A DNA stretch of 64,000 nucleotides from positions 21,193 to 85,192 of the forward strand of contig JAKCEX010000001.1 in NCBI GenBank assembly GCA_023539395.1, read 5' to 3'. Of the stretch, positions 46,342-61,507 are shown piece after piece. The notes under the pieces are model-generated. The model made no database searches. It saw nothing but the letters and a program-made list of their open reading frames with translations, and was not told the origin of the DNA. The DNA comes from Candidatus Geocrenenecus arthurdayi (GTDB lineage Archaea > Thermoproteota > Nitrososphaeria_A > Caldarchaeales > Wolframiiraptoraceae). A program made the translations under genes and the position numbers. Numbering within the stretch: position 1 is the first letter of the stretch; each line of letters starts with the position of its first letter.

Positions 46342-46689
46342 CTATCTATAGCTAAAGATTCTAAGGTCATCTCTCACAATTATGCCGATAGTGTCTGCCT
46401 CAACAGCTATAGGATCTCCCTTCTCTCTTAGTCTCCTAAACTCGTCTATCCTTAAGGGTATGACCTCAACTCCAGGTGGTGGGTCTATGTGCTTAAGCCT
46501 TTCTATGGGATTGCCTAGAAAATAATCTGAGATTAACAATACGTCAACATCACTCCATACATTAAAATCGCCTCTTGCATAAGACCCGATGATAACCGCA
46601 GTGACGGTAAACTGCATACCCTTCACCCATCTTCTTACTGCTTCGATTACTTTCTCCTTCTGCTTCATTCTTTCCTTAATGACTTCCAT
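46342..46689 (-). CDS. Minimal nucleotidyltransferase (MNT), Pol-beta superfamily.
   Basis: 115 aa. The GS...D.D motif is GSYARGDFNVWSDVDVLLIS. Confidence 0.65.
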   Translation of the reverse strand: MEVIKERMKQKEKVIEAVRRWVKGMQFTVTAVIIGSYARGDFNVWSDVDVLLISDYFLGNPIERLKHIDPPPGVEVIPLRIDEFRRLREKGDPIAVEADTIGIIVRDDLRIFSYR

Positions 46690-47045
46690 TTCCCCTCAAC
46701 CCAGTCAATTATTATAGATGCATAGGAAACTGCTTGTTTAGAATCATTCAAGGTGTAGTAATCAGTTGGGATACCCTCACTCCAAGCATTCGGGTATCTT
46801 GTCGGTATATAGTATTTATCTAGAGTTTTAGCATGGTCTAAGATTTCGTCAGGGTTCAGCTCCCGTGGTATGTTATGGAGGAGCAAGGAAATGCTATGAC
46901 CCTTTGGGGTTAATCCTAGACCGTGTAGGAGAGCTTTTACAGCATATCCTGCTGCTTGATGAGCTTTAAAACACGCCCAATTATAATCACCTCTTCCTAA
47001 GTCGCCTTCAGCTGAAAGTAATGTCTTTTTGACATCTCTATCCAT
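46665..47045 (-). CDS. HEPN-domain protein.
   Basis: 126 aa with a classical archaeal HEPN pattern (ACFKAHQAAGYAVKALL ... YYIPTRYP). It overlaps the downstream MNT gene by 25 nt. Confidence 0.65.
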   Translation of the reverse strand: MDRDVKKTLLSAEGDLGRGDYNWACFKAHQAAGYAVKALLHGLGLTPKGHSISLLLHNIPRELNPDEILDHAKTLDKYYIPTRYPNAWSEGIPTDYYTLNDSKQAVSYASIIIDWVEGKWKSLRKE

Positions 47046-47123
47046 CTCTTATATTCCTCATCATCAATCAAAGATACCACAATTAGATAGCAGGAATAAT
47101 ATTTAAGCTGTTAATATATCAAG

Positions 47124-48059
47124 CTACCTAGATGAAATATCATAGATTCTTTTCCAAGCGTTTAAGATCTCTAGCCCACCTTTTTCTTTAAACAATCTTA
47201 CTGCATCTGTAGCTGCTTTCGATATGTCGGTATCCTTAGTGAATGTCTGTACGTGTACTTTCCTAGAATAGTCTGTTGATACAGTTGAGATGGTTATGTT
47301 TAATTCGCCTGAATCCATTTCTACGTATACACCGATAGGTGTCTTACATCCAACATTAAGTAGAGAGATAATACCACGCTCAATCATCGTTTCAATCCAA
47401 CTCTCATAATGATTTACATTCTCAAGGATTTTAATCAATTCATGGTTATCCTTCCTAGCTACAACGGCTAATGCTCCCTGCCCAGCGGGAGGGGTGAAAT
47501 CCTCGATGGGAAGCTTTTCATACCTTATGTTTCCACCGATCCTTTCTAGTCCTGCCTCTGCTAAAATCAAAGCGTCAACATCTCCTCTAAGCATCTTCTG
47601 GATTCTTGTCTCAACATTCCCCCGTATTGGAATTACTTCTAAGTCGCTTCTAACATATTTTATGAATGCTTCTCTTCTAAGACTGCTCGTACCAACCTTG
47701 CTAATCCTAGGTAAATCATCCAAGCTTAAACCATCTCTAGATATGAATACATCATAGGGGCTACGTCTCTCTGGTACAGCGGCTATAACGAGTTCACTAG
47801 GAAGCTTTGTTGGATAATCTTTCATACTATGAACAGCGAAGTCTATCTCTCCTCTAATCAATGCTTGGTCAATCTCCTTCTCGAATATGCCTTTCTCCGG
47901 GATCATGTAGAGTGGCGTCTCTAAATCTATGTCTCCTCTAGTCTTTATAATCTTAATTTCGTACTCTAACTCTGGGAATAGAGTTTTCAGCTTATCGATT
48001 ACTTCCATCGTTTGGATGAGCGAGAGCCTGCTACCTCTGGTCCCGACTCTAAGTCTCAT
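47124..48059 (-). CDS. hemC: Porphobilinogen deaminase (hydroxymethylbilane synthase).
   Basis: 311 aa. The N-terminus is RVGTRGSRLSL and the dipyrromethane cofactor Cys region is present. Confidence 0.85.
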   Translation of the reverse strand: MRLRVGTRGSRLSLIQTMEVIDKLKTLFPELEYEIKIIKTRGDIDLETPLYMIPEKGIFEKEIDQALIRGEIDFAVHSMKDYPTKLPSELVIAAVPERRSPYDVFISRDGLSLDDLPRISKVGTSSLRREAFIKYVRSDLEVIPIRGNVETRIQKMLRGDVDALILAEAGLERIGGNIRYEKLPIEDFTPPAGQGALAVVARKDNHELIKILENVNHYESWIETMIERGIISLLNVGCKTPIGVYVEMDSGELNITISTVSTDYSRKVHVQTFTKDTDISKAATDAVRLFKEKGGLEILNAWKRIYDISSR

Positions 48060-49329
48060 CTTCTATCTGAGAAAGAGAATTCTCGATAGCATTTATCGTT
48101 AATTCTACGTCCTCATCCGTATGGGCTGTGGAGAGAAAGCATGTTTCAAACTGGCTTGGAGGGATAAATACGTTATTCTTAAGCATGCCGTGGAAATACT
48201 TTTTAAATAATCTTATATCTGATTTCTTAACATCATCATAGCATGAAACCTCGCTATCGGTAAAGAATACTTGGAACATTGATTCAATATAATTCACAGT
48301 TATCTTTAGAGATCTATCAGATGCTACTTCCCTTATACTTTTACATATTTTTTCTACTTTCCACTTCATCTCAGAATATATTGCTGGGTTTTCTTTTATA
48401 TAACCTAATACGGCTAATGCTGCTTTAGTAGATATAGGGTTACCGCTATACGTTCCAGAGACATAAACTTTACCAGTAGGCGCAACATTCTTCATTATTT
48501 CCTCTCTTCCACCGAAAGCAGAGATGGGTAGACCACCACCTAACGCTTTACCGAGGGTTGTTAAATCGGCTTTTACACCATAGTATTGCTGTGCACCACC
48601 AGGAGAAAGCCTGAAACCTGTTACCACCTCGTCAAATATTAATACTGCTCCAGAATAGTCTGCCAACTCTCTAAGAGCTTTAAGAAAATCTATCTTTGGC
48701 TCAACCAACCCAAAATTTACTGCTACTGGCTCAACTATTATCGCTGCTAGATCATCCCTATTCTCTTTAACTATCTTCTCAGTCAACTCTACATCATTGA
48801 ATCTTGATATAAGCGTATGTTTAGCCACTTCTTCTAGTACACCGGAACTTGATGGTACGCCGAAAGTTAATGCTCCTGACCCAGCTTTAACTAGTAGAGA
48901 ATCGTGTGATCCATGGAAGCATCCTTCAAACTTGATTATCTTCCTCCTACCAGTGTATCCTCTAGCTAGTCTAACCGCATGCATTGTTGCTTCTAAACCG
49001 CTATTAGCAAGTCTAACCATCTCGATAGATGGGTAGAATTCTCTGATCTTCTCGGCTAACAATACTTCTTCTTCAGTCGGTGCACCATACAAGATGCCAT
49101 CTTCCACTATCTTCTTTAATCTCTCTACAAGCATACTAGGAGCATGCCCAAAGAATAATGCTCCATAACCCATAACATAGTCAATATACTCTCTACCATC
49201 TACGTCGTATATCCTCGAACCTTTACCCTTCCACACAAAAAATGGGTAAGGGTCATAAGCTCTTACAGGACTATTAACCCCTCCAGGAATAACTTTCCTA
49301 GCTCTTTCATACAATTCGAGAGAATTCAT
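48049..49329 (-). CDS. hemL: Glutamate-1-semialdehyde 2,1-aminomutase.
   Basis: 426 aa with the canonical GSA-AM motifs (GGVNSPVRA, the DEV.TGFR PLP region). It overlaps hemC by 11 nt. Confidence 0.85.
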   Translation of the reverse strand: MNSLELYERARKVIPGGVNSPVRAYDPYPFFVWKGKGSRIYDVDGREYIDYVMGYGALFFGHAPSMLVERLKKIVEDGILYGAPTEEEVLLAEKIREFYPSIEMVRLANSGLEATMHAVRLARGYTGRRKIIKFEGCFHGSHDSLLVKAGSGALTFGVPSSSGVLEEVAKHTLISRFNDVELTEKIVKENRDDLAAIIVEPVAVNFGLVEPKIDFLKALRELADYSGAVLIFDEVVTGFRLSPGGAQQYYGVKADLTTLGKALGGGLPISAFGGREEIMKNVAPTGKVYVSGTYSGNPISTKAALAVLGYIKENPAIYSEMKWKVEKICKSIREVASDRSLKITVNYIESMFQVFFTDSEVSCYDDVKKSDIRLFKKYFHGMLKNNVFIPPSQFETCFLSTAHTDEDVELTINAIENSLSQIEDET

Positions 49330-49818
49330 ACTTTCTTTTAAATACTAAACTCTAATTTAAAACTAACTCTAACATTTAAATTAGACTAGAGGGGCTGGGT
49401 AGCACTTGTAGATGAGATAGGAGAGAAGGGAGAAGCTTAGGAACATACAATAGTCTGGTCTAGAATGTATATTCTTGGCTACTGACGGTTAATAATTGAT
49501 GTTATGTGAGAAGATATTTACTGGGCTGAGGTTAGAGATGGGAGAGTTGAATGCCTCCGACGTCATCCATCATAAATGCTGGAGACTGAGAGCTACAAGC
49601 TTATAGATGGGTGATTCTAAAGCAAACCTATACTACATCAGATTGCTTCACTTATCTGTAACATCGTCTTCTAGAAAAATCTTTAAGAAATGTAGCTACC
49701 TAGAATATTTAGATAATGGAGGCTGTAAGCTCCAACTCAAACGGTTCTCTGAAATGTAGGAAGAGGCTTGGTAGAATGCGTAGAGGGATGAGGCTTGGCA
49801 TGATAATACCGATAGAAG

Positions 49819-50238
49819 GTGGACAGGGTGCCTGTAAGAGTAAGAGTGAAGATTGAAGAAGTTAGGGGGAGTGGAGTTATTTATTCTGAAGCTCTTCTCA
49901 AAACAGGTTTTACATCTGAAGAGTTAGATATACATATCCCTAGGGAGCTAGCTAGAGAACTGGGACTGTGGCCTCCACCTCGAGATGCTTCGCTAGAAAT
50001 TCTTGATACAGCTGGTGGAGAGACTCTAAGCTATTTCATACCAAGTGCCGTGAGACTTACTGTTATAGAAGAAGATGAAACTTCGAAAACGATTACATGC
50101 AATGTCATAGTTTCACTCCGGGAGAAAGAGGTACTGCTCTCAGATGAGGTTATTGAAGAGCTTGGGATTGAGATCTTATCTCCTAAGACTGGGATTTGGC
50201 GGTTCAAAGGTGAAGAAAAACTTAGGAGGAGTGTTTAA
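49819..50238 (+). CDS. Hypothetical protein (GTG start).
   Basis: 139 aa. It contains LEILDTAGGETL, which faintly resembles the retropepsin DTGA motif. No assignment is made. Confidence 0.3.
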   Translation: MDRVPVRVRVKIEEVRGSGVIYSEALLKTGFTSEELDIHIPRELARELGLWPPPRDASLEILDTAGGETLSYFIPSAVRLTVIEEDETSKTITCNVIVSLREKEVLLSDEVIEELGIEILSPKTGIWRFKGEEKLRRSV

Positions 50239-50311
50239 CCGCATAAGTATGTAGTAGATTTGCTTAGAAAAAATGATATGAACACTCTATCCATGGCTAG
50301 ACTATTCTTGA

Positions 50312-51340
50312 TCATGGAAGCTGACCATCTCTAAGCCATCTAGCATATTCTTTAGCATGATATGTAATCACCGTATCTGCGCCTGCTCTTCTTATAGAGT
50401 GCAGCTGCTCCCATACAGCTTGCTTCTCATCTATTAATCCTTTCTCAGCCATAAGTTTAATCATAGTATATTCACCGCTAACAGAATAAGCTGCAATAGG
50501 AATATCGAAGTAGTTCCTGATAAGAGATATTACATCTAGATACCATGATGCAGGCTTAACCATGACTATATCTGTACCCTCGGATATGTCTAGTTCAACC
50601 TCCCTGAGAGCTTCCCTAAGATTCCTCGGATCCATCTGGTAGCTTCTCCTATCACCAAAAGCTGGCTTTGAGTAGGCGGCAGACCTGAATGGACCATAAA
50701 GGCTTGATGCATACTTTACAGAGTATGACATTATCGCTGTATCGGTATATCCTGCACTATCTAGAGATCTTCTTATCGCCCAAACCCTCCCATCCATCAT
50801 ATCTGAAGGGGCCACGATATCTGCTCCAGCTTCTGCATGGCTTAGAGCGATCTTCGCTAAAACCTCGATTGTTGAATCATTATCAATAATCTTCTTCATG
50901 TCTTTCTCTATGACGATTCCACAGTGGCCGTGACTAGTATACTGGCATAAACAAACATCTGTAATTACAACTACTTCTTCTCCAAAATTCTTCTTAACCT
51001 CCCTAACAGCTCTCTGCACAATTCCATTTCTATCATATGCAGAAGATCCAAGTTCATCTTTCCTTAAGGGTATACCGAACAGGAGGATTGCTTTTATCCC
51101 TAGGTCTAGTAGCTCGCTTACCTCCTTCAATAACTCTCTAATGGATAGTCTCTCCTGCCCAGGCATACCATCTATTGGTTCACGTCCATCTAATCCATCC
51201 TTCACAAATATAGGCATGATGAGAGATGAGGGGGTAACCTTTGCTTCTGCAGTTAAGTCTCTAATAACCTTACTCTTCCTAAGCCTTCTCAACCTAATAA
51301 TTGGGAAATGACGTCTTTCAAGTTCGATTGACTCTGACAA
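50312..51340 (-). CDS. hemB: Porphobilinogen synthase (ALA dehydratase).
   Basis: 342 aa. The metal/active-site Cys region is [14 protein letters not shown] and the Schiff-base Lys region is present. Confidence 0.85.
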
Positions 51341-51477
51341 TCTAGATTGCCCCGCCTCTACTCACACTTACTCAGCCTCTTATAAACGTTAATCTTCAAC
51401 CTCTCAAAACCAATTCTGAATAGAATAATATGCTCTGCTAGTGAAACTCTACTCGGATACTCTTAGCTAACCCTCAC

Positions 51478-52236
51478 TTGCATCATCTTCCGGAGATGAG
51501 TGTGTACCTCAACGTTTTTAAGTGCTCAAATCAAAACTTTATTGAGTTCATGAGGATGCCTTTCTTCATTGATTTATCCGGCAAGACGATTCTGATCATA
51601 GGTGGTGGAAGAGAAGGAGCAAAGAGAGCAGAGAAGTATTCAAAAAGTGGAGCTAGAATCATAGTGTATAGTAGAAGCTTCGATGATAAGATATTAGAGC
51701 TTAGCCGCAGAGGTTTTATAGAGCTGGTTAAAGGAGATGTGGAGGATATAGGAAAGCTTGAAGAGTACATCAAACTCTCAGACATTATAATGGTTACACT
51801 AGAGACAGAAGAATACAATGATATAATATGGAATATTGCTAAGAAACATAAAGCATTAATAAACCTCGCTAATAATGCTGAGAAAACAGATCTAGTTGTA
51901 CCAATAGATTCCTCTATAGGTCCATTCAGAGTCGCTATAACAACTGAGGGTAAAAGCAGTATGGTTGCACGAGAAGCATTACAGAAAGTCATAGAATACC
52001 TTAGTAGAGAGAAAGAATTGATAAGCTTAGCGGAGATAATGTATAAAGTTAAGAGGATTGTAAGAAAGAGTATCGCTAACCCTGATACAAGATTGAAAAT
52101 ATACTATGAAGTCTTCAATAATAAAAATTTAAGAAAAGCATTGAGATCGGGTGATGAATACTTGGTTGACGAAATATTGAGGAATATATTGAAAGAGTAT
52201 GGTTTAGAGATAGGAAGCTGTGAGGAATATGAATAA
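51478..52236 (+). CDS. sirC: Precorrin-2 dehydrogenase / sirohydrochlorin ferrochelatase-like protein (SirC / CysG N-terminal type).
   Basis: The Rossmann is KTILIIGGGREGAKRA and the siroheme-synthase N-domain architecture is present. The probable start is MRMPFF at about 51550. Confidence 0.65.
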   Translation: MHHLPEMSVYLNVFKCSNQNFIEFMRMPFFIDLSGKTILIIGGGREGAKRAEKYSKSGARIIVYSRSFDDKILELSRRGFIELVKGDVEDIGKLEEYIKLSDIIMVTLETEEYNDIIWNIAKKHKALINLANNAEKTDLVVPIDSSIGPFRVAITTEGKSSMVAREALQKVIEYLSREKELISLAEIMYKVKRIVRKSIANPDTRLKIYYEVFNNKNLRKALRSGDEYLVDEILRNILKEYGLEIGSCEEYE

Positions 52237-53611
52237 GCCGAGAATAATCATCTCTGGTGTTAGCGGCAAGATAGGGAAAACACTCATTACTTCGGCTATC
52301 ATCAGCCTGCTTAGAGAACGTGGATACAGAGTGCAGCCATTCAAAGTCGGACCAGACTTCATAGACCCTTCTTATCATAACATATTCTCAGACGTTTCTT
52401 CACGTAACCTTGATTCTATAATGTTCAATCGAGAAACTATTATCAAATCTTTCTGTAAAATTATGAAAGACGCAGATATATGTGTAATAGAAGGGGTTTT
52501 CGGGCTCTATGATAGCGTAGATGGAGTATCAGAGAGGGGGAGTACAGCGGAAATATCAAAGATTCTCAAAGCGCCAGTCATTTTAATAGTTGATGCTGAG
52601 AGGATCAATAGAGGTCTCCTAGCTTTAGTTAAAGGATTTGTGGAGTTCGATAGAAAAGTAAAGCTTGCAGGAATAATAGTAAATAAGGTAGCACATGAAA
52701 AACAAAGAGAGAAAATAGTAAGTGCTTTTAGGGAAAACTTTAAAGAATTAGAAATTATCGGTCTCATCTATAGAGACAGTCTTATCGAGGAGAAGATGAA
52801 GTATAGACATTTAGGATTAATCCCAATCTCAGAGAGAACAGATGAGATAGAAGAGATAAAACAAGCCATAGGAAAAGTCGGTAGACAAATCGATATTGAT
52901 AAGCTCATCGAGCTGGCTTCTAATGTGGAGGAGATATGTCCTCCTGAATCTGAGGAAACAGGCTTTGTGGTTAGACGTAGTATTAAGGTAGGGGTTATCA
53001 GAGATAATATATTTTCATTTTACTATCCAGAGAATATAGAGTTTTTCGAGGCTACCTGCGATAAAGTCTACAATATCGATTCAACTAGAGATTCATCGCT
53101 TCCAGAAGTAGATTTGCTCTATATTGGAGGAGGGTTTCCAGAAGTCTATGCTGAAATGCTTGAGAAGAATAAACCTTTGAAAAATGATATTAAGAAGAAG
53201 TATGATAAAGGATTGAAGATCTATGCTGAATGCGGTGGGCTAATCTATCTATCGAGTAATGTCAGGACTTTTAATGGTGAAGAATATGAAATGGTTGGGT
53301 TGATTGATGGTTACATAGAAATGGGTAGAAGACCTGTAGGTCATGGATATGTATATCTCTCAGCCATTAGAGATAATCCTCTGACAAACTTCAACCAACG
53401 CTTAATAGGCCATGAATTCCATTATTCTCGGTTAACCTTGAGAGAGAAGGTAGATTTTGCTTTCAGGGTTGAGAGAGGATACGGGGTGGATGGGTTACAT
53501 GATGGAGTAATAAAAGAGAATCTCCTAGCAATGTATACGCATCTACACTTTCTCCATAATCCAGAAGTTTTTAGAAAGTTAACAATGTGGGCAAATAAAA
53601 GTCAGCGATAG
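52220..53611 (+). CDS. cbiA: CbiA/CobB/CfbB-family a,c-diamide synthase (glutamine amidotransferase).
   Basis: 463 aa. The N-terminal ATP-binding AAA/MinD-like domain reads ISGVSGKIGKT. The C-terminal GATase region is ECGG. It overlaps sirC by 17 nt. Confidence 0.7.
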   Translation: MRNMNKPRIIISGVSGKIGKTLITSAIISLLRERGYRVQPFKVGPDFIDPSYHNIFSDVSSRNLDSIMFNRETIIKSFCKIMKDADICVIEGVFGLYDSVDGVSERGSTAEISKILKAPVILIVDAERINRGLLALVKGFVEFDRKVKLAGIIVNKVAHEKQREKIVSAFRENFKELEIIGLIYRDSLIEEKMKYRHLGLIPISERTDEIEEIKQAIGKVGRQIDIDKLIELASNVEEICPPESEETGFVVRRSIKVGVIRDNIFSFYYPENIEFFEATCDKVYNIDSTRDSSLPEVDLLYIGGGFPEVYAEMLEKNKPLKNDIKKKYDKGLKIYAECGGLIYLSSNVRTFNGEEYEMVGLIDGYIEMGRRPVGHGYVYLSAIRDNPLTNFNQRLIGHEFHYSRLTLREKVDFAFRVERGYGVDGLHDGVIKENLLAMYTHLHFLHNPEVFRKLTMWANKSQR

Positions 53612-54465
53612 CCTATACTCTCTAGGAAAGAGAGTACCTCTCTATTAACTATATCTGGTCTCTCTAGCAAGACATAGTGACCATAACCCTCAATTATGAC
53701 GAGCTTAGAGTTTGGGATCTTTTCATGGACCTTCTTAGAAAATTCAGGCGGCGTCCTCTCATCTTTATCTCCAACTATTATGAGTGTGGGCACTTTTATT
53801 GTATGAAGCTTATCTGACGCATCGTATTTAGCTAATGTTTTAACAATGTTTAAGTAATCTCTCCTTCTATTTTTAGTCAAGTCCTCGACCGCCCAGTTGA
53901 TAATCTCGGGACTAGTAGATTTCGAGAACATCTTCTCAACTTCTTTCTTTACTTGATTTTCATACTTCAATGACTCGAATCCTTCAAAATCTGCGAAATC
54001 CATGAAGAGTGTAAACATTTCACGTATAGTTCTAAGATATGCTTCTATAAGCATTCCAGGTCTTTTATGTAGCCTGCTTGAAATAAGTATTAATCCTCTT
54101 ACTTTTTCAGGATGATCAAAATAATATTGTGTTGATATCATTCCACCCATTGACCAACCTATTAATACAAGTTCATCTATGTGTAGATGGTTTAGAACTC
54201 TATCTACATCTTCAGCAAGCTTCTCAACGGTTGTAGGCTTTTCTAATCTAGCAGACTTGCCATGACCTCTAACATCAATTGCAATTACCTTATACTTCTT
54301 TGAGAATTCAGGGATCTGCATCCTCCACCATTCATGAGAAGCCCACGCACCATGAATTAGTAAGACAGGTTTACCCTCACCATAAACCTCATAATAAATC
54401 TCATTATCTAAATAGGGCATCAAGAAAATCTCTTTGAAGCTTAGATTAAAACATATCTTCTTCAA
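53602..54465 (-). CDS. Alpha/beta-fold hydrolase.
   Basis: The nucleophile elbow is GWSMGG and the HG oxyanion region is LLIHGAW. The start is probably the internal MPYLDNEIYY at about 54420. Confidence 0.65.
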   Translation of the reverse strand: MKKICFNLSFKEIFLMPYLDNEIYYEVYGEGKPVLLIHGAWASHEWWRMQIPEFSKKYKVIAIDVRGHGKSARLEKPTTVEKLAEDVDRVLNHLHIDELVLIGWSMGGMISTQYYFDHPEKVRGLILISSRLHKRPGMLIEAYLRTIREMFTLFMDFADFEGFESLKYENQVKKEVEKMFSKSTSPEIINWAVEDLTKNRRRDYLNIVKTLAKYDASDKLHTIKVPTLIIVGDKDERTPPEFSKKVHEKIPNSKLVIIEGYGHYVLLERPDIVNREVLSFLESIGYR

Positions 54466-54483
54466 TCTTAATCAGCCTGACCC

Positions 54484-54560
54484 TGTCAACTTTTACTTAA
54501 GCTTTTCTCTTTATATCTATGGCCAGGTTTCTGTTATGTTTTCTTATGCATGTATTGGAT
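54484..54560. repeat. Copy B of the duplicated intergenic element of about 77 nt.
   Basis: tgtcaacttttacttaagcttttctctttatatctatggccaggtttctgttatgttttcttatgcatgtattggat. It is about 75-80% identical to copy A. It shares the blocks TGTCAACTTTTA, TCTATGGC, GGTTTCT and TTTCTTATGCA. It lies in the divergent hydrolase/hemA intergenic region. Confidence 0.6.
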
Positions 54561-54973
54561 TACAATGGATAGGTTGTCTAAGCTATTCAAGTTTAATAAT
54601 TATCCATTGGGTGAGAAGGCTTAATCTATTATGCTTCATATTGCTGGTTTAAGCCTTAGAGACCTCTCAGAGATGTACTATGTAACGATGGCTTCCAAAA
54701 AGAGTGTTAGGAGATGATGCCATAGATTCTCAAGGATATTCTCTGTAGAGAAGAAGTTTAGGGATACTGTTGGGAGATTCTTCAGATACCTAAAACAGAG
54801 GACTAGAAGATTCTACAACAATATAAATACTTGGAGTATCAAGTCTATAGAAGACTATGCATCAGCAATAGCAATAATAAGAAACATACTCACAATAATG
54901 AAAACACAAGAAGGCCTATTACCTGGCATGACAGGATCATCTCGATATTACTTGTAGAAGCTTTTTAAGAACC

Positions 54974-56287
54974 GTGAGACCTTTATCTATAGTTGATGAT
55001 GGTATGTCTTTGAATGCTATTCATGGTCTCCTCTTAAACCATAAGCTGCTACCTATATCTAGGCTTGAGAAGTTTTTCTTTAGAGACTTGGAATTAGCGC
55101 TTAGACTATTTAAGAATGTTGGTGGTGTTGAAGGTGTAGCTATACTCCAGACATGCAATAGGGTGGAAGTATATCTTGATCTAAGAAGTGAGGAAGCAGT
55201 AGAGGAGGTAGTAGGTATCTGGAGAGATTTAACCGAAGACATGGATGTTGAGAGGAATATCCTATTGGTTAGGGGGGCCGAGGTGGTTAAGCATCTATTC
55301 AGGCTGGCTTCCGGTCTTGAATCAATGGTTATAGGTGAGCAGGAGATTCTACGTCAAGTAAAAGAAGCATACTACAAAGCATTAGCTGTTAACAGTCTAT
55401 CTCTACTACTTAAGATGATATTCGAGGAAGCTATCAGGATCGGTAAGAAGGTTAGGTCTGAGACGGAGATAAGTAGGAAGAGGATGAGCCTAGCCCATGT
55501 CGCCGTCGAATTAGTTGAGAAAATACTCAAGAACATGGATGACAAGGTAATCCTCATAATAGGTGCTGGGGAGACAGGCGAGCTAGTAAACTCTGCATTA
55601 ATGGAGAAAAACTACAGGAAGCTCACCTTGCTATTCGCTAATAGAACCTATGAGAGGGCTATCCATCTAGCTAACATGAGCGGAGGGATAGCTCTAAGAC
55701 TAGACCAGGTTGAAAACTATCTAAGAATAGCAGATATAGTATTCGTGACGACTTCCGCACCTCACTACATTATAACTAAAGAGAGGGTAGCGGAAGCGAT
55801 CAAAGGGAGAGATAAGCCCCTCCTGGTAATCGACTTATCTGTTCCTAGAAACGTCGACCCTGAAGTCTCAAGACTGCAAAACCTAAAACTCATAACAATA
55901 GACGACCTTAAAGAACACATCGACCACTCAATCTATGATAAGATTAAGGAATTAGATAAGGTAGAAGCATTAATCGAAGAGTACGTGGAGAAGTTCCAGG
56001 AGAAGCTAGAAACAATATGGATTGAAGAACTAGTCTCCAAGATCTACAGTTATGCAGAGAAGGTTAGATTAGAAGAAGTTTTAGAAGCAATGTCTATGAT
56101 CAAGACTGTTAAGCTTGATGAGAGAAGCAGAGAAATAATAGAAGACATGTCCCGAGCAATAGTCAAGAGAATACTAAACCCATTAATAGAAAACCTTAGA
56201 AGAAACTACAAAAATGTAAATAAAGTAGACCTAAGCAGCCTGTTAAGAATATATATTGAAGAAAGAGATTTTGATAAAAACGGATAA
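54974..56287 (+). CDS. hemA: Glutamyl-tRNA reductase.
   Basis: 437 aa. The catalytic Cys region is ILQTCNRVEVY and the NADPH site is IIGAGETGE. Confidence 0.8.
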   Translation: MRPLSIVDDGMSLNAIHGLLLNHKLLPISRLEKFFFRDLELALRLFKNVGGVEGVAILQTCNRVEVYLDLRSEEAVEEVVGIWRDLTEDMDVERNILLVRGAEVVKHLFRLASGLESMVIGEQEILRQVKEAYYKALAVNSLSLLLKMIFEEAIRIGKKVRSETEISRKRMSLAHVAVELVEKILKNMDDKVILIIGAGETGELVNSALMEKNYRKLTLLFANRTYERAIHLANMSGGIALRLDQVENYLRIADIVFVTTSAPHYIITKERVAEAIKGRDKPLLVIDLSVPRNVDPEVSRLQNLKLITIDDLKEHIDHSIYDKIKELDKVEALIEEYVEKFQEKLETIWIEELVSKIYSYAEKVRLEEVLEAMSMIKTVKLDERSREIIEDMSRAIVKRILNPLIENLRRNYKNVNKVDLSSLLRIYIEERDFDKNG

Positions 56288-56355: not shown

Positions 56356-56371
56356 ATTTTTACATAAAAAG
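56356..56371 (+). promoter_or_regulatory. Degenerate variant of the same element upstream of dsrC.
   Basis: The sequence atttttacataaaaag (the GG of CATGG is missing) is followed by aattaaatac and about 35 nt to the dsrC ATG. Confidence 0.25.
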
Positions 56372-56417
56372 AATTAAATACTTGCATTATACATCCTAAA
56401 ATGTAGGTGGATGGATC

Positions 56418-56738
56418 ATGCCGTACGTAGAGTTTAAGGGACAGAAGCTCGAAGTAGATGAGGATGGTTTTCTACAGGAACCTGAGAAATGGAGTCCAGA
56501 AGTTGCAGAATTCTTTGCTAAGCATTTTGAGGGAGTAGAGAAGCTTACTGATGAACATTGGAAAGTAATAAATTATCTTAGAGAATACTGGCAGAAATAT
56601 GGTGTAGCTCCACCTATAAGGATGCTTGTAAAGCAGACAGGGTTCTCCCTCCAGAAGATATATGAGCTCTTCCCTTCTGGACCTGCAAAGGGTGCTTGCA
56701 AGGTAGCCGGACTACCAAAGCCAACAGGCTGCGTCTAA
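56418..56738 (+). CDS. dsrC: DsrC (TusE/DsrC family) with both conserved C-terminal cysteines.
   Basis: 106 aa ending in ACKVAGLPKPTGCV. This is the DsrC C-terminal arm with CysB and the penultimate CysA 11 residues apart. Confidence 0.8.
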   Translation: MPYVEFKGQKLEVDEDGFLQEPEKWSPEVAEFFAKHFEGVEKLTDEHWKVINYLREYWQKYGVAPPIRMLVKQTGFSLQKIYELFPSGPAKGACKVAGLPKPTGCV

Positions 56739-56779
56739 CATAACAGCTAGATATATTATATCATGTATTTATTTGTCGG

Positions 56780-57484
56780 GTGGTTGGATTGAGTCACACT
56801 GAACGTGGTGAGAAGACAGTATCTCAAGAAAGGAGGACAGCGCTAAAAATAATTACATCTATCTCATTTATTGTAAGTCTTGGTAGTCTAGCTTCACTCT
56901 TAAAATCTATTAGCCCAGTTGTTTTAGAGATCCCTGAGTGGCCACGTGTAAGGTTAGCTAATATTAATGGGATCAAGCTTAGAACATGGTATCTATTTTC
57001 TTATCCAACAAAAGATATTCCATGCCTATTAGTGAAGACGGGTAAAAGTCTTCCTTCAGGGGTAGGCCCAGATAGAGATATAATCGCATATGTTATGATA
57101 TGCCAGCATGCCAGATACTATGGTACAATCTACATCCCACCCAAAGAAGTTAGAGACCCAGAAAAACTTACATATTTGAAGACTGTCCCACCAAACATCC
57201 TGGAACTATACCCGGACAAGAATTTGCTCTATTGCCCAGCTCATGCTGGAATCTACGACCTTGAGAAAGACGGCGAAGTACTTGCAGGACCACCTTTCTG
57301 TAGCCTATGTAAGGTCGTACTTGAATATGATGAGGCTTCAGGAGACATTTATGCTGTTGGTCTTTCCCCGCCAGCCCCGGCTGTACCGGGAGTTACGCAC
57401 TGTTCCAACAATCCTGAAGAACTAAAGAGGATTATGCTTGGAAAAAAGCTTGTGACGGAGGCGTCTCTAGAAGAGAAGATCTAG
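56780..57484 (+). CDS. Rieske-type [2Fe-2S] protein with a Tat signal and membrane anchor.
   Basis: GTG start. The twin-arginine motif is ERRTALKI, followed by a TM helix. Box I is CQH and box II is CPAHAGIYD...GPP. The box II context (CPxHGxYDxxGxxxxGP) is strongly Rieske-like, but both disulfide-forming Cys are replaced. The spacer between boxes is unusually long, about 40 aa. Confidence 0.55.
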   Translation: MVGLSHTERGEKTVSQERRTALKIITSISFIVSLGSLASLLKSISPVVLEIPEWPRVRLANINGIKLRTWYLFSYPTKDIPCLLVKTGKSLPSGVGPDRDIIAYVMICQHARYYGTIYIPPKEVRDPEKLTYLKTVPPNILELYPDKNLLYCPAHAGIYDLEKDGEVLAGPPFCSLCKVVLEYDEASGDIYAVGLSPPAPAVPGVTHCSNNPEELKRIMLGKKLVTEASLEEKI

Positions 57485-58978
57485 GTGATCAAGTTGAGTG
57501 AGAGAAAGAGCATCATCAGTAGGTTCACGGAATGGCTTGACGAGAATTTTGGTTTTACAAAGACTATTCTCCGCCCCGCCCCTGAGTATTCTCTTAGGAA
57601 CCCCTCCTACTGGTTGGGTGCTATAAATGTTATAGCTTTCTTCACGGCGGGTATTACAGGGATAATACTCCTCCAATACTATGAACCCCATCCTGATACT
57701 GCATGGGAGTCTGTAAGTAGGATAATTACAGAAGTTCCTTATGGAAACCTCATCAGAAACATACATATTTACGCAGCTTTTTCCATGATATTCGTTACAT
57801 TCCTACATTTTATGAGGAATTATTTTGTCGTTGCTTATAGGAGGCCTAGAGAGTTGATGTGGATTATAGGTATGCTTATGGGTTTAGCTACTTTAATGAT
57901 GGGGTTTACGGGTTACCTCCTCCCATGGTATGCTCTCTCATATGCAGCTGTAGGATTCGGGATAACAATAATAAAGCAACTGCCCCAGCCATTAAGCGGC
58001 TTCCTTGAATACGTTATCTCAGGATACGGAACAGATGTAGAACTTCTGAGAAGATTCTACACATTCCATACAGTCCTGCTACCTGCTGTAATCATTATCT
58101 TGCTAGCTGTAAAACTACACATATTCGAAGTCCATGGAATAACGGAGCCCCTATCCAAGGACATCCCAGAAGAAGAAAAGAAGCTTATCCCATGGTTTCC
58201 AAACATATTTCTATACTTTGTAATCTTGGTCTGCGTCTATATTGCATCAATACTTACAGCATCGATAATATACCCATTCGGGATACATGAGAAATATATT
58301 CCTGGCGTTGTCACTATACCTATGCCTGAATGGTATTTTATGTGGACGTATGCGATAGCTAAGACGGAGTTCATAGAGGTGCTCGGCGCGACAGGCTTCA
58401 AGATCTTTATAGCAACCCTCATAATCATAACATTGATCTTCGTATTCCTACCATTCATAGATAGATGGAAAGATAAGCATCCTTCTCAGAGACCCTTCTT
58501 CATAGCTATAGGGGTTTGGATAGTAGTCCAGATAAGCTTGATGACTTATCTAGCGTGGGCAACGGCAGGCTCATATATACCTTCAGATACAGCCATTCTC
58601 TCAATAGTTATCCCAACGATAATAGTATTCATAGCTGCCTACCTATATCGATTAAAGCTGGTAAAGCCGCCTGAACTAGTATGGGAGAAGTTTAGTAAAC
58701 TGAAACAAACAAAGCTAGAGAAAACCTCTGGTAATCCTAGAGAATCCATCTTGGTGGCCATAAAATTCTTATTAACTATAATGTGTGCAGGTTTATCATT
58801 TAGGATTATCTATGGGTCCTTAAGTGAAAACTTAAGCTTCGGATGGTTTATACTTGGCTTAGCTTTCTTCGCCTTCTCTACTATAGAATCATTTAAAGTA
58901 GTTTATGTTGCAGACTTGAAGGTTGGAAACGTGGGGAGAAGATTGAGGTCTTTTGAGAGGTGGTTTGGAGTTGGCTAG
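57485..58978 (+). CDS. Cytochrome b of a Rieske/cyt b complex (cyt b6 plus a subunit-IV-like fusion).
   Basis: 497 aa, GTG start directly after the Rieske stop. The His pair 13 residues apart (NIHIYAAFSMIFVTFLHF) is typical of cyt b helix B. Further His residues sit in helix D. There are about 10-12 TM helices. Confidence 0.7.
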   Translation: MIKLSERKSIISRFTEWLDENFGFTKTILRPAPEYSLRNPSYWLGAINVIAFFTAGITGIILLQYYEPHPDTAWESVSRIITEVPYGNLIRNIHIYAAFSMIFVTFLHFMRNYFVVAYRRPRELMWIIGMLMGLATLMMGFTGYLLPWYALSYAAVGFGITIIKQLPQPLSGFLEYVISGYGTDVELLRRFYTFHTVLLPAVIIILLAVKLHIFEVHGITEPLSKDIPEEEKKLIPWFPNIFLYFVILVCVYIASILTASIIYPFGIHEKYIPGVVTIPMPEWYFMWTYAIAKTEFIEVLGATGFKIFIATLIIITLIFVFLPFIDRWKDKHPSQRPFFIAIGVWIVVQISLMTYLAWATAGSYIPSDTAILSIVIPTIIVFIAAYLYRLKLVKPPELVWEKFSKLKQTKLEKTSGNPRESILVAIKFLLTIMCAGLSFRIIYGSLSENLSFGWFILGLAFFAFSTIESFKVVYVADLKVGNVGRRLRSFERWFGVG

Positions 58979-59234
58979 AAGTATCGAGATTGCTCTAGTC
59001 ATCCTACTTTTAGTTCAAGGTGTATTGACTGTTTTAACATGGATGCTAAACCCAATAATAGTAACTCATCAGACTCTCGCAGCTGGATATATTGCTTCAA
59101 GCTTAATCATCCTAAGCCTAATAACTTACGTCTACTATAGAGGTGAAGAGTATGACCAGGAGTGGATAGCAGCCGGTATTGGGATGATAGTCCTAATACT
59201 ATTACTTACATATCTTAAGGGAGGTGTCGTGTAG
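58953..59234 (+). CDS. Small membrane protein (about 3 TM helices), possibly an accessory subunit.
   Basis: 93 aa and hydrophobic. It overlaps the cyt b 3' end. The next gene starts 1 nt after it. Confidence 0.3.
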   Translation: MRGGLELARSIEIALVILLLVQGVLTVLTWMLNPIIVTHQTLAAGYIASSLIILSLITYVYYRGEEYDQEWIAAGIGMIVLILLLTYLKGGVV

Positions 59235-60044
59235 GTGGACCCATTGATCTTCATCATAGGCTATATAACTCCATACATAGCATTCTTCACATTGATTTTA
59301 GGCTTGATGTATAGAGTGGTGAGATGGCTTTCAATACCAGTTCCATTCAGGCTCCCGGTTGCTCCTGCACCTATAACGTATACAGGAGTATTGAAGGGGA
59401 TGTCGTTGGACTTCTTTGCATTTAGAAGCTTACTAAAAGGTAATAAGAAGCTCTGGATAGGTGGATACGTCTTCCACGTAGCTCTAGCTATAACCTTAAT
59501 CTCTCACATAATCAATGTATACTTCCATGAGCTCTGGGCAGTCATCGGGTATGGATGGTATGAGGCGGTGCTATATTCGGGGATATTCTTCCTAGCTGCA
59601 TTATCTTTCCTCCTAGTTAGAAGAATAGTTCTTCCAAATGTGAGATATATCTCAAAGTTAAGTGATTACATTATCTTAATACTTTTGATTACAATAGTAT
59701 TCCTGGGAGTTTACATGAGAAGTTTTGGATTAGTGGATGTAGCCTCCGTAAGTGAATATATGCATAGTCTCCTAATGTTCAACCCTATCCCGCCGCCGGG
59801 TAACATATGGTTCTTAACACATTATGTTTTAGCCCAGATACTGTTTATTTACATACCATTCAGTAAAGTATCTCACTTAATCGGGTGGATCCTAGCGACT
59901 ACTAGGAATATGAGGAATATAACTAGGTGGAGGAGACATGTAAACCCATGGGATTACCCAGTTGAAGTAATTACTTGGGATGAATATTACCAGAAGTTTA
60001 AAGATGAGCTAGAAGCAATCGGACCAGGAGGTGAGAGAAGATGA
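59235..60044 (+). CDS. DsrM/HdrE/NarI-like membrane subunit (second paralog).
   Basis: 269 aa, GTG start. It is collinear with the dsrM-like protein at 43146..43829 (the N-termini read IFIIGYITPYIAFFTLILGLMYRVVRWL versus IFIGIYLPYITLVVFIVAVIYNFFKWI). His residues sit in the TM helices. Confidence 0.6.
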   Translation: MDPLIFIIGYITPYIAFFTLILGLMYRVVRWLSIPVPFRLPVAPAPITYTGVLKGMSLDFFAFRSLLKGNKKLWIGGYVFHVALAITLISHIINVYFHELWAVIGYGWYEAVLYSGIFFLAALSFLLVRRIVLPNVRYISKLSDYIILILLITIVFLGVYMRSFGLVDVASVSEYMHSLLMFNPIPPPGNIWFLTHYVLAQILFIYIPFSKVSHLIGWILATTRNMRNITRWRRHVNPWDYPVEVITWDEYYQKFKDELEAIGPGGERR

Positions 60045-61507
60045 AGATAGATATGAGTTTCCCTGCAAGGAAGTATAAACTCTATGCTACGTGGAAACGC
60101 GATATGGAGATTATGAAGCTACCCTTCCCAAGAGAGTGGAGTCATACACAGTTTAATCTACCACCCAATTGGAGGGAAATAGCTTTAAAGAAGATGGATG
60201 AAGTGGTAAAGAAGTTTAGGTCTGTTAAGCTCTTCCTAGATATATGCGTAAAATGTGGAGCATGCACAGATAAATGTCCATTCTTCCTCGGCACATTAGA
60301 CCCCAACAATATGCCGGTTGCAAGACAAGACCTATTCAGATCAGTCTATAAGAGATACTTTACGTTAACTGGCAGGGTCTTCAGGGGGCTTGTTGGAGCA
60401 GAAGAACTTACAGAGGAAACAGTAGAGCTTTGGTATACCTATTTCTATCAATGTTCTCAATGTAGAAGATGCTCCGTCTTCTGCCCCTATGGTATAGATA
60501 CTGCGGAGATAATGATTGCCGCTAGAGAAGTGCTTACAGCAATAGGTCTCAGCCCAAGGTCGCTTACTGAAGCAATAGCTAAATGTGAAACCATAGGAAA
60601 CCACATGGGCATACCTCCAGCAGCTTTACTCAGTGCCATACAATTCGCAGAAGAAGAAATAAAAGAAGAGACAGGAATAGAAGTTAAGGTACCGATAAAC
60701 AAGAAGGGTGCAGAGATACTCTATGTTCCGCCTTCTGCGGACTTCTTTGGGGGACCCCACTGGGGGACGCTTAAAGGAGCTATAAAGATGTTCCATCAGA
60801 TCGGGTTAGACTATACAATAAGCACTTATGCAAGTGAAGGTGGTAATTTTGGTACATGGCTTGGATATGAGCATATGAAGAAGATAAATAAGAAGCTTGT
60901 TGAAGAAGCTAGGAGGCTTGGTGTTAAATGGATACTTGGTGGAGAATGCGGACATATGTGGAGGGTTATCCACGCTTTCATGGATACTATGAATGGACCA
61001 CTAGATTTCTTGGAAGAACCTGTCTCACCTATAACTGGTACAAAGTTTGAGCATGCAGCATCTACCAAGATGGTTCATATCTGCGAGTTTACAGCAGACT
61101 TGATAAAACATGGAAAACTTAAGTTAAACCCGGATGCAAATAATCAGTACATTGTTACATATCATGATTCATGTAATCCGGCCAGGGTTATGGGGCTTAT
61201 AGAGGAACCCAGATACATACTAAAGAATGTATGCAGGAATTACGTAGAGCTTGACCCGAATGTAAACAGAGAGAAAACTATATGCTGTTGTGCAGGTGGG
61301 GGGTTACTTGCAGATGAGACAATTGAATTAAGACTTAAAGCTATTAGACCAAAGATCGAAGCTATAAAGAGGACTGGTGCAAACTTCTTGGCATGCATAT
61401 GCGCGATAGATAAAGCAGCATTCACTGAATATTTTGAGCATTACAAACTACCCATAACAGTTGGAGGAGTTCATGAACTAGTTGGAAACGCATTAGTGTT
61501 TGATTAA
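60041..61507 (+). CDS. DsrK/HdrD-like CCG-domain iron-sulfur protein (second paralog).
   Basis: 488 aa. The ferredoxin motifs are CVKCGACTDKCP and CSQCRRCSVFCP, and the CCG domain reads ICCCAGGGL. Its start overlaps the upstream stop (ATGA). Confidence 0.7.
   Translation: MKIDMSFPARKYKLYATWKRDMEIMKLPFPREWSHTQFNLPPNWREIALKKMDEVVKKFRSVKLFLDICVKCGACTDKCPFFLGTLDPNNMPVARQDLFRSVYKRYFTLTGRVFRGLVGAEELTEETVELWYTYFYQCSQCRRCSVFCPYGIDTAEIMIAAREVLTAIGLSPRSLTEAIAKCETIGNHMGIPPAALLSAIQFAEEEIKEETGIEVKVPINKKGAEILYVPPSADFFGGPHWGTLKGAIKMFHQIGLDYTISTYASEGGNFGTWLGYEHMKKINKKLVEEARRLGVKWILGGECGHMWRVIHAFMDTMNGPLDFLEEPVSPITGTKFEHAASTKMVHICEFTADLIKHGKLKLNPDANNQYIVTYHDSCNPARVMGLIEEPRYILKNVCRNYVELDPNVNREKTICCCAGGGLLADETIELRLKAIRPKIEAIKRTGANFLACICAIDKAAFTEYFEHYKLPITVGGVHELVGNALVFD

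Follow-up and report, generated by a model that had tools for sequence, protein, structure and literature searches.

Does the Rieske/cytochrome b unit encoded between dsrC and dsrMK in Candidatus Geocrenenecus arthurdayi work with the products of these genes as one respiratory module, or do the genes only share a neighbourhood? The question arises from six consecutive open reading frames (ORFs) at positions 56418-61507 of the window, by which we mean the whole 64,000-nucleotide (nt) stretch analysed (64 kb; GenBank assembly GCA_023539395.1, contig JAKCEX010000001.1, positions 21,193 to 85,192 of the forward strand). Geocrenenecus is lineage AigG5 (JGI-0000106-J15) within the Wolframiiraptoraceae (PMC9246946), the lineage of Aigarchaeota in which dsrAB was first noted (Hua et al., 2018). 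Based on the gene content of the window and on a comparative survey of the cluster in about 20 loci, a functional Rieske/cytochrome b-DsrMK-DsrC module is well supported, in which Rieske/cytochrome b would most likely fill the role of DsrJOP as the second, outward-facing, quinone-reactive module.

The ORF listing places all six genes on the + strand, at the positions given in the first-pass annotation of the window, with two signals ahead of them; lengths are in amino acids (aa).

56366..56381, + strand: BRE/TATA-like (B recognition element/TATA) promoter element AAAAAGAATTAAATAC, about 40 nt upstream of dsrC, read from the sequence
56406-56411, + strand: GGTGGA Shine-Dalgarno motif of dsrC, read from the sequence
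56418..56738, + strand: dsrC, cytoplasmic DsrC, 106 aa (PF04358, 131.2 bits; TIGR03342, 129.8 bits)
56780..57484, + strand: Rieske [2Fe-2S] protein, ORF of 234 aa, probable start TTG at 56789 (PDB homology)
57485..58978, + strand: cytochrome b of SoxC/SoxN type, ORF of 497 aa, probable start TTG at 57494 (PF00033, PF13631, PF00032)
58953..59234, + strand: small membrane subunit with three transmembrane (TM) helices, ORF of 93 aa, 87 aa from the probable start TTG at 58971 (homologues, TM prediction)
59235..60044, + strand: dsrM (DsrM2), NarI-type dihaem cytochrome b, 269 aa (PF02665, 57 bits)
60041..61507, + strand: dsrK (DsrK2), cytoplasmic Fe-S protein, 488 aa (NCBIfam DsrK model, 604 bits)

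The tight coupling of the six genes claimed in the first-pass annotation agrees with the listing, as do its junctions at 57484/57485 and 59234/59235 and its ATGA overlap at 60041. Its overlap of about 26 nt is present between the cytochrome b and small-subunit ORFs, but falls to 8 nt with the probable later starts, which are based on homologue lengths and on the positions of GGTG(A/G) Shine-Dalgarno motifs; this minor correction leaves the picture unchanged and gives spacers of 50, 9, -8, 0, and -4 nt along the operon. A GGTG(A/G) motif precedes each gene downstream of dsrC. The BRE/TATA-like element, at the same distance to dsrC, and the GGTGGA motif are both kept in all Aigarchaeal relatives (GCA_026413845.1, labelled L001, and the metagenome contigs L087-L091), and TATA-rich elements occupy the equivalent place in Korarchaeal and Thermoprotei loci; a promoter role is probable for the element upstream of dsrC. 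The usual archaeal termination signal is a run of five or more T. Read directly for T-runs and for TATA and Shine-Dalgarno motifs, as suits an archaeal host, the intergenic spacers of the operon contain no such run, the sole internal T5 lying within the cytochrome b gene, so that the internal terminator considered in the first-pass annotation does not appear in any of them. The dsrC-Rieske spacer is variable in sequence among relatives and is 12-26 nt long in the Korarchaeal and Thermoprotei loci, which makes an obligatory internal promoter at this place unlikely. The predicted co-transcription of the six genes as one unit is well supported. All six are under purifying selection against relatives (ratio of nonsynonymous to synonymous substitution rates, dN/dS, 0.01-0.12), with values of 0.009-0.034 for DsrC, 0.02-0.05 for DsrK, 0.03-0.06 for DsrM, 0.06-0.10 for cytochrome b, 0.09-0.10 for the small subunit, and about 0.09-0.12 for the Rieske protein.

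Profile and PDB searches agree with the six domain calls of the first-pass annotation. Beyond the Aigarchaeal relatives, the loci used for comparison include a Thermoprotei locus (L085), that of the korarchaeon Ca. Methanodesulfokores (L095), that of an archaeal metagenome-assembled genome (MAG) (GCA_027491735.1; L099), the archaeal-type loci L096, L097, and L098, an archaeal cytochrome b relative outside any dsr context (L086), and a DsrEFH-DsrMKJOP operon (L100). DsrC lies well above the curated cut-offs of its two models (24.9 bits for PF04358 and 53.5 bits for TIGR03342), has no TM segment, and ends in the arm GACKVAGLPKPTGCV, which carries CysB (C94) and the penultimate CysA (C105) in the spacing CysB-x10-CysA; both cysteines are kept in seven of eight lineages. 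DsrM has five TM helices (predicted here, as throughout, from hydropathy), a conserved cytoplasmic C-terminal tail, and four NarI-type haem histidines, H81 and H91 being 10 and H196 and H214 being 18 residues apart; its 166.7 bits against the NCBIfam DsrM model (NF038037) are under the cut-off of 300, yet this is the best model by far. DsrK has no TM segment and scores 604.1 bits against its own model (NF045796, cut-off 400), followed by TmcB (192 bits) and HmcF (153 bits). It contains two CxxCxxCxxxC motifs (C69-C79 and C138-C148) and, in its CCG domain, four of the five cysteines of CXnCCGXnCX2C (C378, C415, C416, and C454). The final Cys of the CX2C element is an Asp (C454-A-I-D457; window 61400-61411), as in the DsrK proteins of the Aigarchaeal, Korarchaeal, and Thermoprotei loci and of L099, L096, and L097; L098, L100 (of the DsrMKJOP type), and DsrK1, the second DsrK of the window, keep Cys at this position. 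The Aigarchaeal DsrK proteins have an additional C452, two residues before C454. A PDB sequence search returned no solved DsrK relative at E<=1e-5.

Other identities for the last two genes were rejected. Models for GlpC, Sdh, and TfrB reach at most 48 bits with the CCG protein, against 604 for DsrK, which excludes the succinate dehydrogenase- or GlpC-type subunit that the first-pass annotation had kept in view; Hdr subunit models reach at most 20 bits, the DsrK and DsrM models are the best, and the context is dsrABCD, all at odds with HdrD and HdrE. This DsrMK co-occurs with dsrC in the operon and with dsrABD 15 kb upstream in the window; the DsrMK module would reduce DsrC trisulfide with quinol.

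The Rieske protein is divergent and has no Pfam match. Its homologues in the PDB are AioB (E=5e-17) and SoxF of Sulfolobus (E=2e-12), and the NCBIfam models for AioB-type (69 bits) and SoxL2 (43 bits) proteins both score below their cut-offs. Both cluster ligand boxes are recognisable (C108-Q-H110 and C152-P-A-H155). A twin-arginine motif, ERRTALK, lies at 56828-56848, its RR being invariant in 11 of 11 aligned sequences, and one N-terminal TM helix (residues 22-40) follows; with this Tat-type export signal, the domain is predicted to face outward. The Rieske proteins of the window and of its Aigarchaeal relatives are the only ones without the disulfide pair (CQHARYY and CPAH), and these proteins alone have an 18-aa insert between the boxes and a new C174-S-L-C177 in the Pro loop (57101-57310); the disulfide cysteines (CxHxGC...CPCH) are kept in the Rieske proteins of the Korarchaeal and Thermoprotei loci and of L099, L096, L097, L098, and L086. 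Lower-potential or AioB-like Rieske centres typically lack this disulfide. A role as the Rieske part of an arsenite oxidase was rejected, since the window has no AioA-type gene and a cytochrome b follows in every lineage.

Cytochrome b is best matched among NCBIfam models by SoxC (175 bits, below cut-off) and has at least nine TM helices and no Cys for haem ci. Among 121 homologues (the window protein included), the Qo motif is intact, with P, W, and Y of P281-E-W-Y284 invariant and E/D conserved, and the haem ligands H94, H108, and H195, placed by alignment to cytochrome b6/bc1 chains, are invariant. The fourth ligand position (H202 of b6) is Lys in 121/121 (K210 here; 58112-58120), and the residue two positions further on is His in 33, including H212 of the window and the dsr-linked proteins, and Tyr in 88. 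Either the inner haem would have an unusual ligation or the helix would adopt a different register. The small membrane protein matches no Pfam or NCBIfam family; its motifs (LxP..., Y..Y, and D(Q/E)EW(I/L)A.G) recur in homologues encoded directly after cytochrome b in the Korarchaeal and Thermoprotei loci, L099, L096, and the non-dsr L086. The L098 homologue forms the C-terminal part of a fusion with cytochrome b, which identifies the small protein as a subunit of the cytochrome b unit. CXXCH is absent from all six operon products, and among the operon genes and the larger scanned ORFs of the window none encodes a CXXCH, blue-copper, NrfD-family, or Fer4_11 protein, in keeping with the first-pass annotation, which had noted no cytochrome c1 or copper partner. 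A dedicated outer acceptor (c1/f, dihaem c, CbsA-type, or soluble cytochrome b) is likewise absent from the operon and from the dsr-linked loci. In the predicted topology, cytochrome b, DsrM, and the small subunit span the membrane, the Rieske domain faces the outside, and DsrC and DsrK are on the inside.

A functional link is supported by the recurrence of this association in other genomes. Exact-sequence searches with the cytochrome b and DsrK of the window gave no match, probably because of differences in start codon or in single residues, and relatives were found by way of homologues. A metagenome scan with a Rieske alignment returned 8 loci; a genome-contig scan with patterns derived from the cytochrome b alignment (generic ones, such as FTGYLLPW) returned at least 80, mostly bacterial bc/b6 complexes, its useful yield being outgroup archaeal loci and Chloroflexota operons; and a sampling that started from DsrK was blind to cytochrome b. 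The neighbourhood survey suggested in the first-pass annotation recovered the same six-gene synteny in other Aigarchaeal, Korarchaeal, and MAG loci. The order is identical in six further Aigarchaeal contigs (GCA_026413845.1 and the five metagenome contigs; cytochrome b 76-99% identical) and in Ca. Methanodesulfokores and GCA_027491735.1, in both of which it continues with genes for a CGGC protein, a ferredoxin, and dsrAB. The next cytochrome b relatives (about 41-45% identical) are on Thermoprotei contigs, in the order DsrC-Rieske-cytochrome b-small subunit-ferredoxin-dsrA-dsrB, followed further on by CGGC protein-hemA-dsrM-dsrK-dsrM1-dsrK1, so that dsrMK is 6 kb downstream. Direct joining with dsrMK in one operon, as the first-pass annotation described it, is thus present here but is only one of several arrangements. 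L096 has Rieske-cytochrome b-small subunit-CGGC protein-dsrM, convergent with a dsrC-like gene, dsrK, dsrM1, and dsrK1. L098 has Rieske-Rieske-cytochrome b (fused with the small subunit)-dsrM-dsrK, its cytochrome b being 28% identical to that of the window. L097 encodes on a single strand Rieske-cytochrome b-small subunit, an Sdh operon, dsrN, dsrC, dsrMK, dsrM1K1, and dsrABD, with all genes of the link inside 9 kb.

In the sample that started from DsrK, Rieske/cytochrome b genes were located within 10 kb in five of five archaeal-type loci (L095-L099), whereas L100, whose 542-aa DsrK is the nearest bacterial-type relative (63% identical), encodes DsrJOP and no Rieske/cytochrome b. No DsrJ-, DsrO-, or DsrP-type gene occurs in L001, L003, L085, L095, or L097-L099, and L096 has no NrfD gene, its Fer4_11 gene standing beside a gene of the DMSO (dimethyl sulfoxide) reductase family. 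Conversely, no DsrC, DsrM, or DsrK gene was found near the non-dsr archaeal cytochrome b relatives (L005-L007, L021, and L086). L086 (8276-11741) encodes a CbsA-like haem-b protein, a Rieske protein, cytochrome b, and an 86-aa subunit, with the CbsA-like gene where dsrC sits in the window; judged by its gene content, this cluster is an analogue of the bc1 complex of the SoxLN-CbsAB type of Sulfolobus, and indicates what the dsr-linked units are without. Recurrence in independent contigs and lineages makes the arrangement more than chance, and conservation across archaeal lineages and through rearrangements gives strong support for a functional link. We conclude that Rieske/cytochrome b is a conserved partner of this DsrMK subfamily, the link persisting under various gene orders in at least six lineages of archaea. 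Identity to the window proteins in the other lineages is 65-78% for DsrK, 47-82% for DsrC, and 43-56% for DsrM.

A comparable pairing occurs in Chloroflexota, in which at least four loci (L056, 9548-13498; L011, 9638-13493; L029; and L034) contain an operon of cytochrome b6, subunit IV, a Rieske protein, and a fusion protein of 632-655 aa with a NarI-type membrane domain, two ferredoxin motifs, and two CCG domains. The fusion protein is HdrD/TfrB-like, its start overlaps the Rieske gene, and its four copies are 51-59% identical to one another. There are no dsr genes near these operons, and we found no description of them in the full-text-searchable literature. This independent pairing supports a general functional affinity of Rieske/cytochrome b and HdrED-type modules.

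Other genes of these loci were also recorded. A protein of about 125 aa with a CGGC domain (PF08821) is encoded next to dsrK or dsrM in four lineages (L095, 11504-11881; L099, 11522-11908; L085, 15955-16338; and L096, 15763-16143, there within the operon); tblastn found no homologue in the window. The DsrC-like gene that precedes dsrK in L096 (9546-9881) has Ile for CysB and its product ends in AAAGC, and for these reasons it is not a bona fide DsrC. Also in L096, a DMSO reductase-family molybdoenzyme and a four-cluster Fe-S protein (18739-21480) are encoded divergently from the Rieske gene. The operon of L098 (6472-13669), with its two tandem Rieske genes, is adjoined by DsrEFH, DsrE2-like, and TusA genes, which suggests a system that may run oxidatively or in disproportionation in this lineage.

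The operon forms the right-hand end of a dsr island, in which haem and sirohaem genes separate two dsr blocks. From left to right, the island contains YeiH-like and radical-SAM/SPASM genes, the minus-strand block ferredoxin-dsrD-dsrB-dsrA-DsrK1/DsrM1, the haem genes, and the dsrC operon.

38782-38967, - strand: 61-aa 2x[4Fe-4S] ferredoxin (ORF)
39085-39297, - strand: dsrD (PF08679, 28 bits, above 24.2)
39318-40391, - strand: dsrB (TIGR02066, 488 bits)
40394-41578, - strand: dsrA (TIGR02064, 537 bits)
41745-43139, - strand: dsrK1 (DsrK model, 312 bits)
43146-43829, - strand: dsrM1 (DsrM model, 36 bits)
44069..56287: haem/sirohaem supply genes hemD, cobA, hemC, hemL, hemB, precorrin-2 dehydrogenase-like, dsrN, and hemA (NCBIfam/Pfam)
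52220-53611: dsrN, 54% identical to a Korarchaeal CbiA-type protein encoded beside dsrC
54974-56287: hemA (NCBIfam/Pfam)

The first-pass annotation had taken the operon pair as a second, DsrMK-like pair and the one beside dsrABD as canonical; the scores show the reverse (604 vs 312 bits), DsrK1 falling below the cut-off of 400. The operon DsrK shares 56-59% identity with bacterial DsrK proteins, several of which carry the name 'DsrMKJOP subunit DsrK', and 63% with that of L100. The nearest named relatives of DsrK1 are those of Archaeoglobus fulgidus (68%) and Desulfofundulus (55%), and the two DsrK types are 31-33% identical to each other. By these comparisons, the DsrMK of DsrMKJOP is more closely related to the operon pair, and the pair beside dsrABD is of the Archaeoglobus/Firmicutes MK-only type, consistent with the basal clade described as 'dsrMK-only' by Neukirchen et al., 2023 (PMC10504309). 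Both types also occur together in the Thermoprotei locus, L096, L097, and L098.

The haem/sirohaem block is interrupted by a HEPN/minimal nucleotidyltransferase pair of toxin-antitoxin type (46342-47045, minus strand, between cobA and hemC) and by a hydrolase gene. The YeiH-like (PF03601) and radical-SAM/SPASM genes flank the dsrABD block (35810-38777); in L085, homologues of both (34% and 37% identical, respectively) stand immediately ahead of dsrC, and the dsrC of L095 is likewise preceded by a radical-SAM/SPASM gene, so these proteins may be further conserved members of archaeal dsr islands. Downstream of dsrK by 149 nt, a 272-aa ORF (61657-62475) has its own Shine-Dalgarno motif and no Pfam or NCBIfam match; it is 80-99.6% identical in L087 and L089-L091, and another gene takes its place in L001.

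How might the parts work together? That the Rieske/cytochrome b unit works with DsrMK and DsrC as a respiratory module, in place of DsrJOP, has in our judgement about an even chance of being right, and the assembly would then be a quinol:DsrC-trisulfide oxidoreductase in sulfite respiration. The reductive direction is indicated by the dsrD gene of the window, DsrD being regarded as a mark of that direction (PMC8794893). With the Rieske protein outside and DsrC and DsrK inside, a Rieske electron could reach DsrC only by re-crossing the membrane, and DsrM, as a predicted transmembrane dihaem wire bound to DsrK, would be the obvious route; the lack of a CbsA-type acceptor in the dsr-linked units, where L086 has one, favours DsrM as the acceptor. 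The DsrM haems of Allochromatium reportedly titrate at about +60 and +110 mV, values that would suit an acceptor for a Rieske centre of the menaquinol type. In the proposed sequence, quinol would be oxidised at the Qo site, one electron passing by way of the Rieske cluster to the outer haem of DsrM, which would replace the CbsA- or c1-type acceptor. This electron would cross the membrane through DsrM to DsrK and reduce the DsrC trisulfide, while the second would be passed back to the quinone pool via both b haems. With such a Q-cycle, more charges would be moved per electron than by DsrMK on its own. The more specific proposal, that the Rieske/cytochrome b unit and DsrMK are joined in one supercomplex acting as a Q-cycling or Qo-bifurcating quinol:DsrC-trisulfide reductase, with DsrM in place of c1/CbsA, as an archaeal alternative to DsrJOP, we put forward only tentatively. 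If true, the archaeal and Chloroflexota systems would represent an unrecognised class of 'Rieske/cytochrome b : HdrED-type thiol/disulfide reductase' complexes.

Several observations weigh against a dedicated, intimate module of this kind. A single Rieske/cytochrome b-DsrMK complex would follow from gene order, which fits one complex or two co-regulated complexes alike. Identity to the window is 28-45% for the Rieske protein and 28-43% for cytochrome b in the other lineages, a divergence far greater than that of DsrK, DsrM, or DsrC; L098 and L097 have cytochromes b of other subtypes; and in a rough tree the non-dsr L086 cytochrome b nests among the dsr-linked ones. On account of this divergence and nesting, the partners seem not to be tightly co-evolved, and cytochrome b may have been exchanged: the outer module would have undergone either much faster evolution or replacement. 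Replacement would mean that the pairing was rebuilt, which argues for function, whereas rapid divergence makes an intimate interface less credible. An Sdh operon lies between Rieske/cytochrome b and dsrC-dsrMK in L097, and a phmmer search with DsrM against 1.84 billion representatives yielded no Rieske- or cytochrome b-DsrM fusion among the best 150 matches. The Q-cycle also has a cost, estimated at four charges per two electrons, which would require the DsrC-trisulfide couple to lie about 250-350 mV above the quinone couple. Finally, haem-copper oxidases are reported in JZ bin_15, of lineage AigG5 (Hua et al., 2018), so the Rieske/cytochrome b unit could also serve aerobic respiration.

In the DsrM search itself, the top match (P0392, 3750 aa) and the twentieth (P0411, 1791 aa, a fibronectin-III repeat protein) owe their scores to 16-32 weak repeats and are taken as artefacts of summed domain scores, not as DsrM relatives; P0441 has a LolA-like N-terminal fusion.

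The same divergence and the intervening Sdh genes of L097 are what would be expected of two separate complexes that share a quinone pool and a regulon, DsrMK passing electrons between DsrC and the quinone, and the Rieske/cytochrome b unit oxidising the quinol and feeding an acceptor on the outer side, which might be a copper protein or an oxidase with its gene at another place or a sulfur compound outside the cell; during sulfur oxidation or disproportionation, electrons would then run linearly from DsrC through DsrK, DsrM, quinone, and Rieske/cytochrome b to that acceptor. Cable bacteria offer a precedent, running c1-less PetAB and DsrMK(J) separately in series (PMC13047784), and the sulfur-oxidation markers DsrEFH, DsrE2, and TusA beside Rieske-cytochrome b-dsrMK in L098 would suit this explanation, as would the oxidases of JZ bin_15 and the report that most Aigarchaeota are sulfide-oxidising (Hua et al., 2018). 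Against it, dsrB is followed in both the window and L097 by dsrD, which marks DsrAB as reductive or disproportionating, Ca. Methanodesulfokores is considered to reduce sulfite anaerobically (PMC11362583), and no outer acceptor gene is in or near the dsr-linked clusters, although L086 encodes its CbsA-like protein within the operon. Co-regulation would also leave unexplained the abutment of stop and start between the small subunit and dsrM, the L096 operon of Rieske-cytochrome b-small subunit-dsrM without dsrK, and the rebuilding of the link with a different type of cytochrome b in L098. We consider two separate complexes possible, if rather unlikely.

Other explanations reinterpret particular features of the locus. 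The ferredoxin genes would suit bifurcation at the Qo site, with the exergonic branch from Rieske through DsrM and DsrK to the trisulfide driving the b-haem electron to the ferredoxin encoded beside dsrAB, a low-potential carrier of the cytoplasm that would supply DsrAB: the Korarchaeal and Thermoprotei loci and L099 have the gene of a 71-80-aa ferredoxin placed directly between module and dsrAB, and a ferredoxin gene of 61-64 aa flanks dsrAB in the window, L097, and L098. Bifurcation has been proposed for DsrMK with DsrJOP (PMC10861901) and for anammox Rieske/cytochrome b complexes (PMC12954380). The surroundings of the inner haem are unusual too, with Lys at the fourth ligand and His at +2 only in the dsr-linked subgroup; this Lys, however, is common to all 121 relatives, non-dsr ones included. 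The cytoplasmic face of cytochrome b has no evident ferredoxin cofactor site or docking domain, a 1:1 split of electrons mismatches the 4:2 demand of DsrAB and DsrK, and the ferredoxin is equally explicable as an ordinary partner of DsrAB, so that we regard this mechanism as improbable. Least probable of all is that the arrangement has no functional meaning, Rieske/cytochrome b, haem, and dsr genes merely gathering in a laterally moving respiratory and haem island. The dsr genes of the window lie among clustered genes for the biosynthesis of haem and sirohaem, identities of 65-82% for DsrAB, DsrC, and DsrK across phyla suggest lateral transfer of the block, and transfer of dsrAB was inferred by Hua et al. 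Yet strong purifying selection acts on all six genes, the association outlasts at least five rearrangements and one replacement of cytochrome b type, the partner is exclusive (JOP in L100, Rieske/cytochrome b in the archaeal loci), and a similar pairing arose independently in Chloroflexota.

Taken as a joint respiratory module, the system bears on the question of how energy is conserved at the last step of sulfite/sulfate respiration, and the link suggests a new mode of coupling. DsrMK alone can reduce DsrC trisulfide with menaquinol; the role of DsrJOP has been called an enigma (Barbosa et al., 2024), and it is by analogy only that DsrMK and a second quinone module have been proposed to cycle quinone in the manner of bc1 (PMC10861901). 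Here, in several deep-branching lineages of hot-spring archaea, the same DsrMK subfamily is genetically tied to a true Rieske/cytochrome b unit, and this natural swap of partner module makes testable both the effect of the second quinone module on H+/e- and the ability of DsrM to accept electrons from an outer Fe-S centre. The link is also relevant to accounts of early sulfite respiration in which DsrABCMK(N) is the complete archaeal minimal set (PMC10504309), and would extend the known partners of Rieske/cytochrome b beyond oxidases, Nar, and anammox enzymes. In line with the first-pass annotation, which did not recognise the arrangement as a described one, the full-text-searchable literature (subscription papers being outside this scope) contains no statement linking Rieske/cytochrome b to DsrMK/DsrC in archaea; its papers mentioning both Rieske and DsrC do not concern these organisms, and those on Aigarchaeota and Wolframiiraptoraceae and the recent hot-spring surveys do not mention the link. 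The synteny study of Neukirchen et al. draws non-Dsr neighbours as unnamed grey boxes (PMC10504309).

Which known systems does the operon resemble? The HdrDE complex of cytochrome-containing methanogens likewise combines a NarI-type dihaem membrane protein with a cytoplasmic CCG protein containing a non-cubane cluster, but it uses methanophenazine and has no Rieske/cytochrome b partner, whereas the CCG protein of the operon described here matches DsrK best by a wide margin and has DsrC encoded with it. Cable bacteria have a c1-less Rieske/cytochrome b in an organism with DsrABCD and DsrMK sulfur metabolism, but the genes are unlinked and the complexes are thought to be separate, with periplasmic cytochromes c as acceptors (PMC13047784). 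The Rieske/cytochrome b complexes of anammox bacteria are also encoded in operons with unusual partner subunits, with bifurcation proposed (PMC12954380), but these partners are multihaem c proteins and an NAD(P)-linked flavoprotein, and the complexes are bacterial and have no relation to sulfur metabolism. The bc1 analogues of Sulfolobus (SoxL/SoxF, SoxN/SoxC, and CbsA) supply the best models for the Rieske protein and cytochrome b (SoxL2/SoxF and SoxC), lack cytochrome c1 as the operon does, and share with L086 the gene set of CbsA-like protein, Rieske, cytochrome b, and small subunit; in contrast, the operon has no CbsA-like or copper acceptor, is linked with DsrC and DsrMK and not with an oxidase, and in the Aigarchaeal lineage has lost the Rieske disulfide.

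A precedent for Rieske/cytochrome b serving a single anaerobic reductase through clustered genes is the haloarchaeal Rieske/cytochrome b-Nar cluster, in which a c1-less unit is clustered with an anaerobic terminal reductase (Martinez-Espinosa, 2007; Baymann et al., 2012, PMC3509893) and has been proposed to feed it (PMC3509893). There, pNarGH faces outward and is reached via a soluble cytochrome b, whereas DsrK and DsrC are cytoplasmic here, so that the electron would re-cross the membrane, presumably through DsrM. DsrMKJOP itself (PMC10861901) shares with the operon a DsrK that is 56-63% identical, a NarI-type dihaem DsrM, and a DsrC with both cysteines, and in both systems DsrMK is joined to a second quinone-reactive membrane module with an Fe-S protein on the outer face. 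The differences are that DsrJ (trihaem c), DsrO (four-cluster Fe-S), and DsrP (NrfD family) are absent here, that the unrelated Rieske [2Fe-2S] protein, cytochrome b, and small subunit take the place of JOP in the operon, and that the last CCG Cys is Asp in most of these archaeal DsrK proteins. Set beside these systems, the operon can be described equally well as DsrMK paired with another partner module and as a Rieske/cytochrome b unit dedicated to a new terminal reductase.

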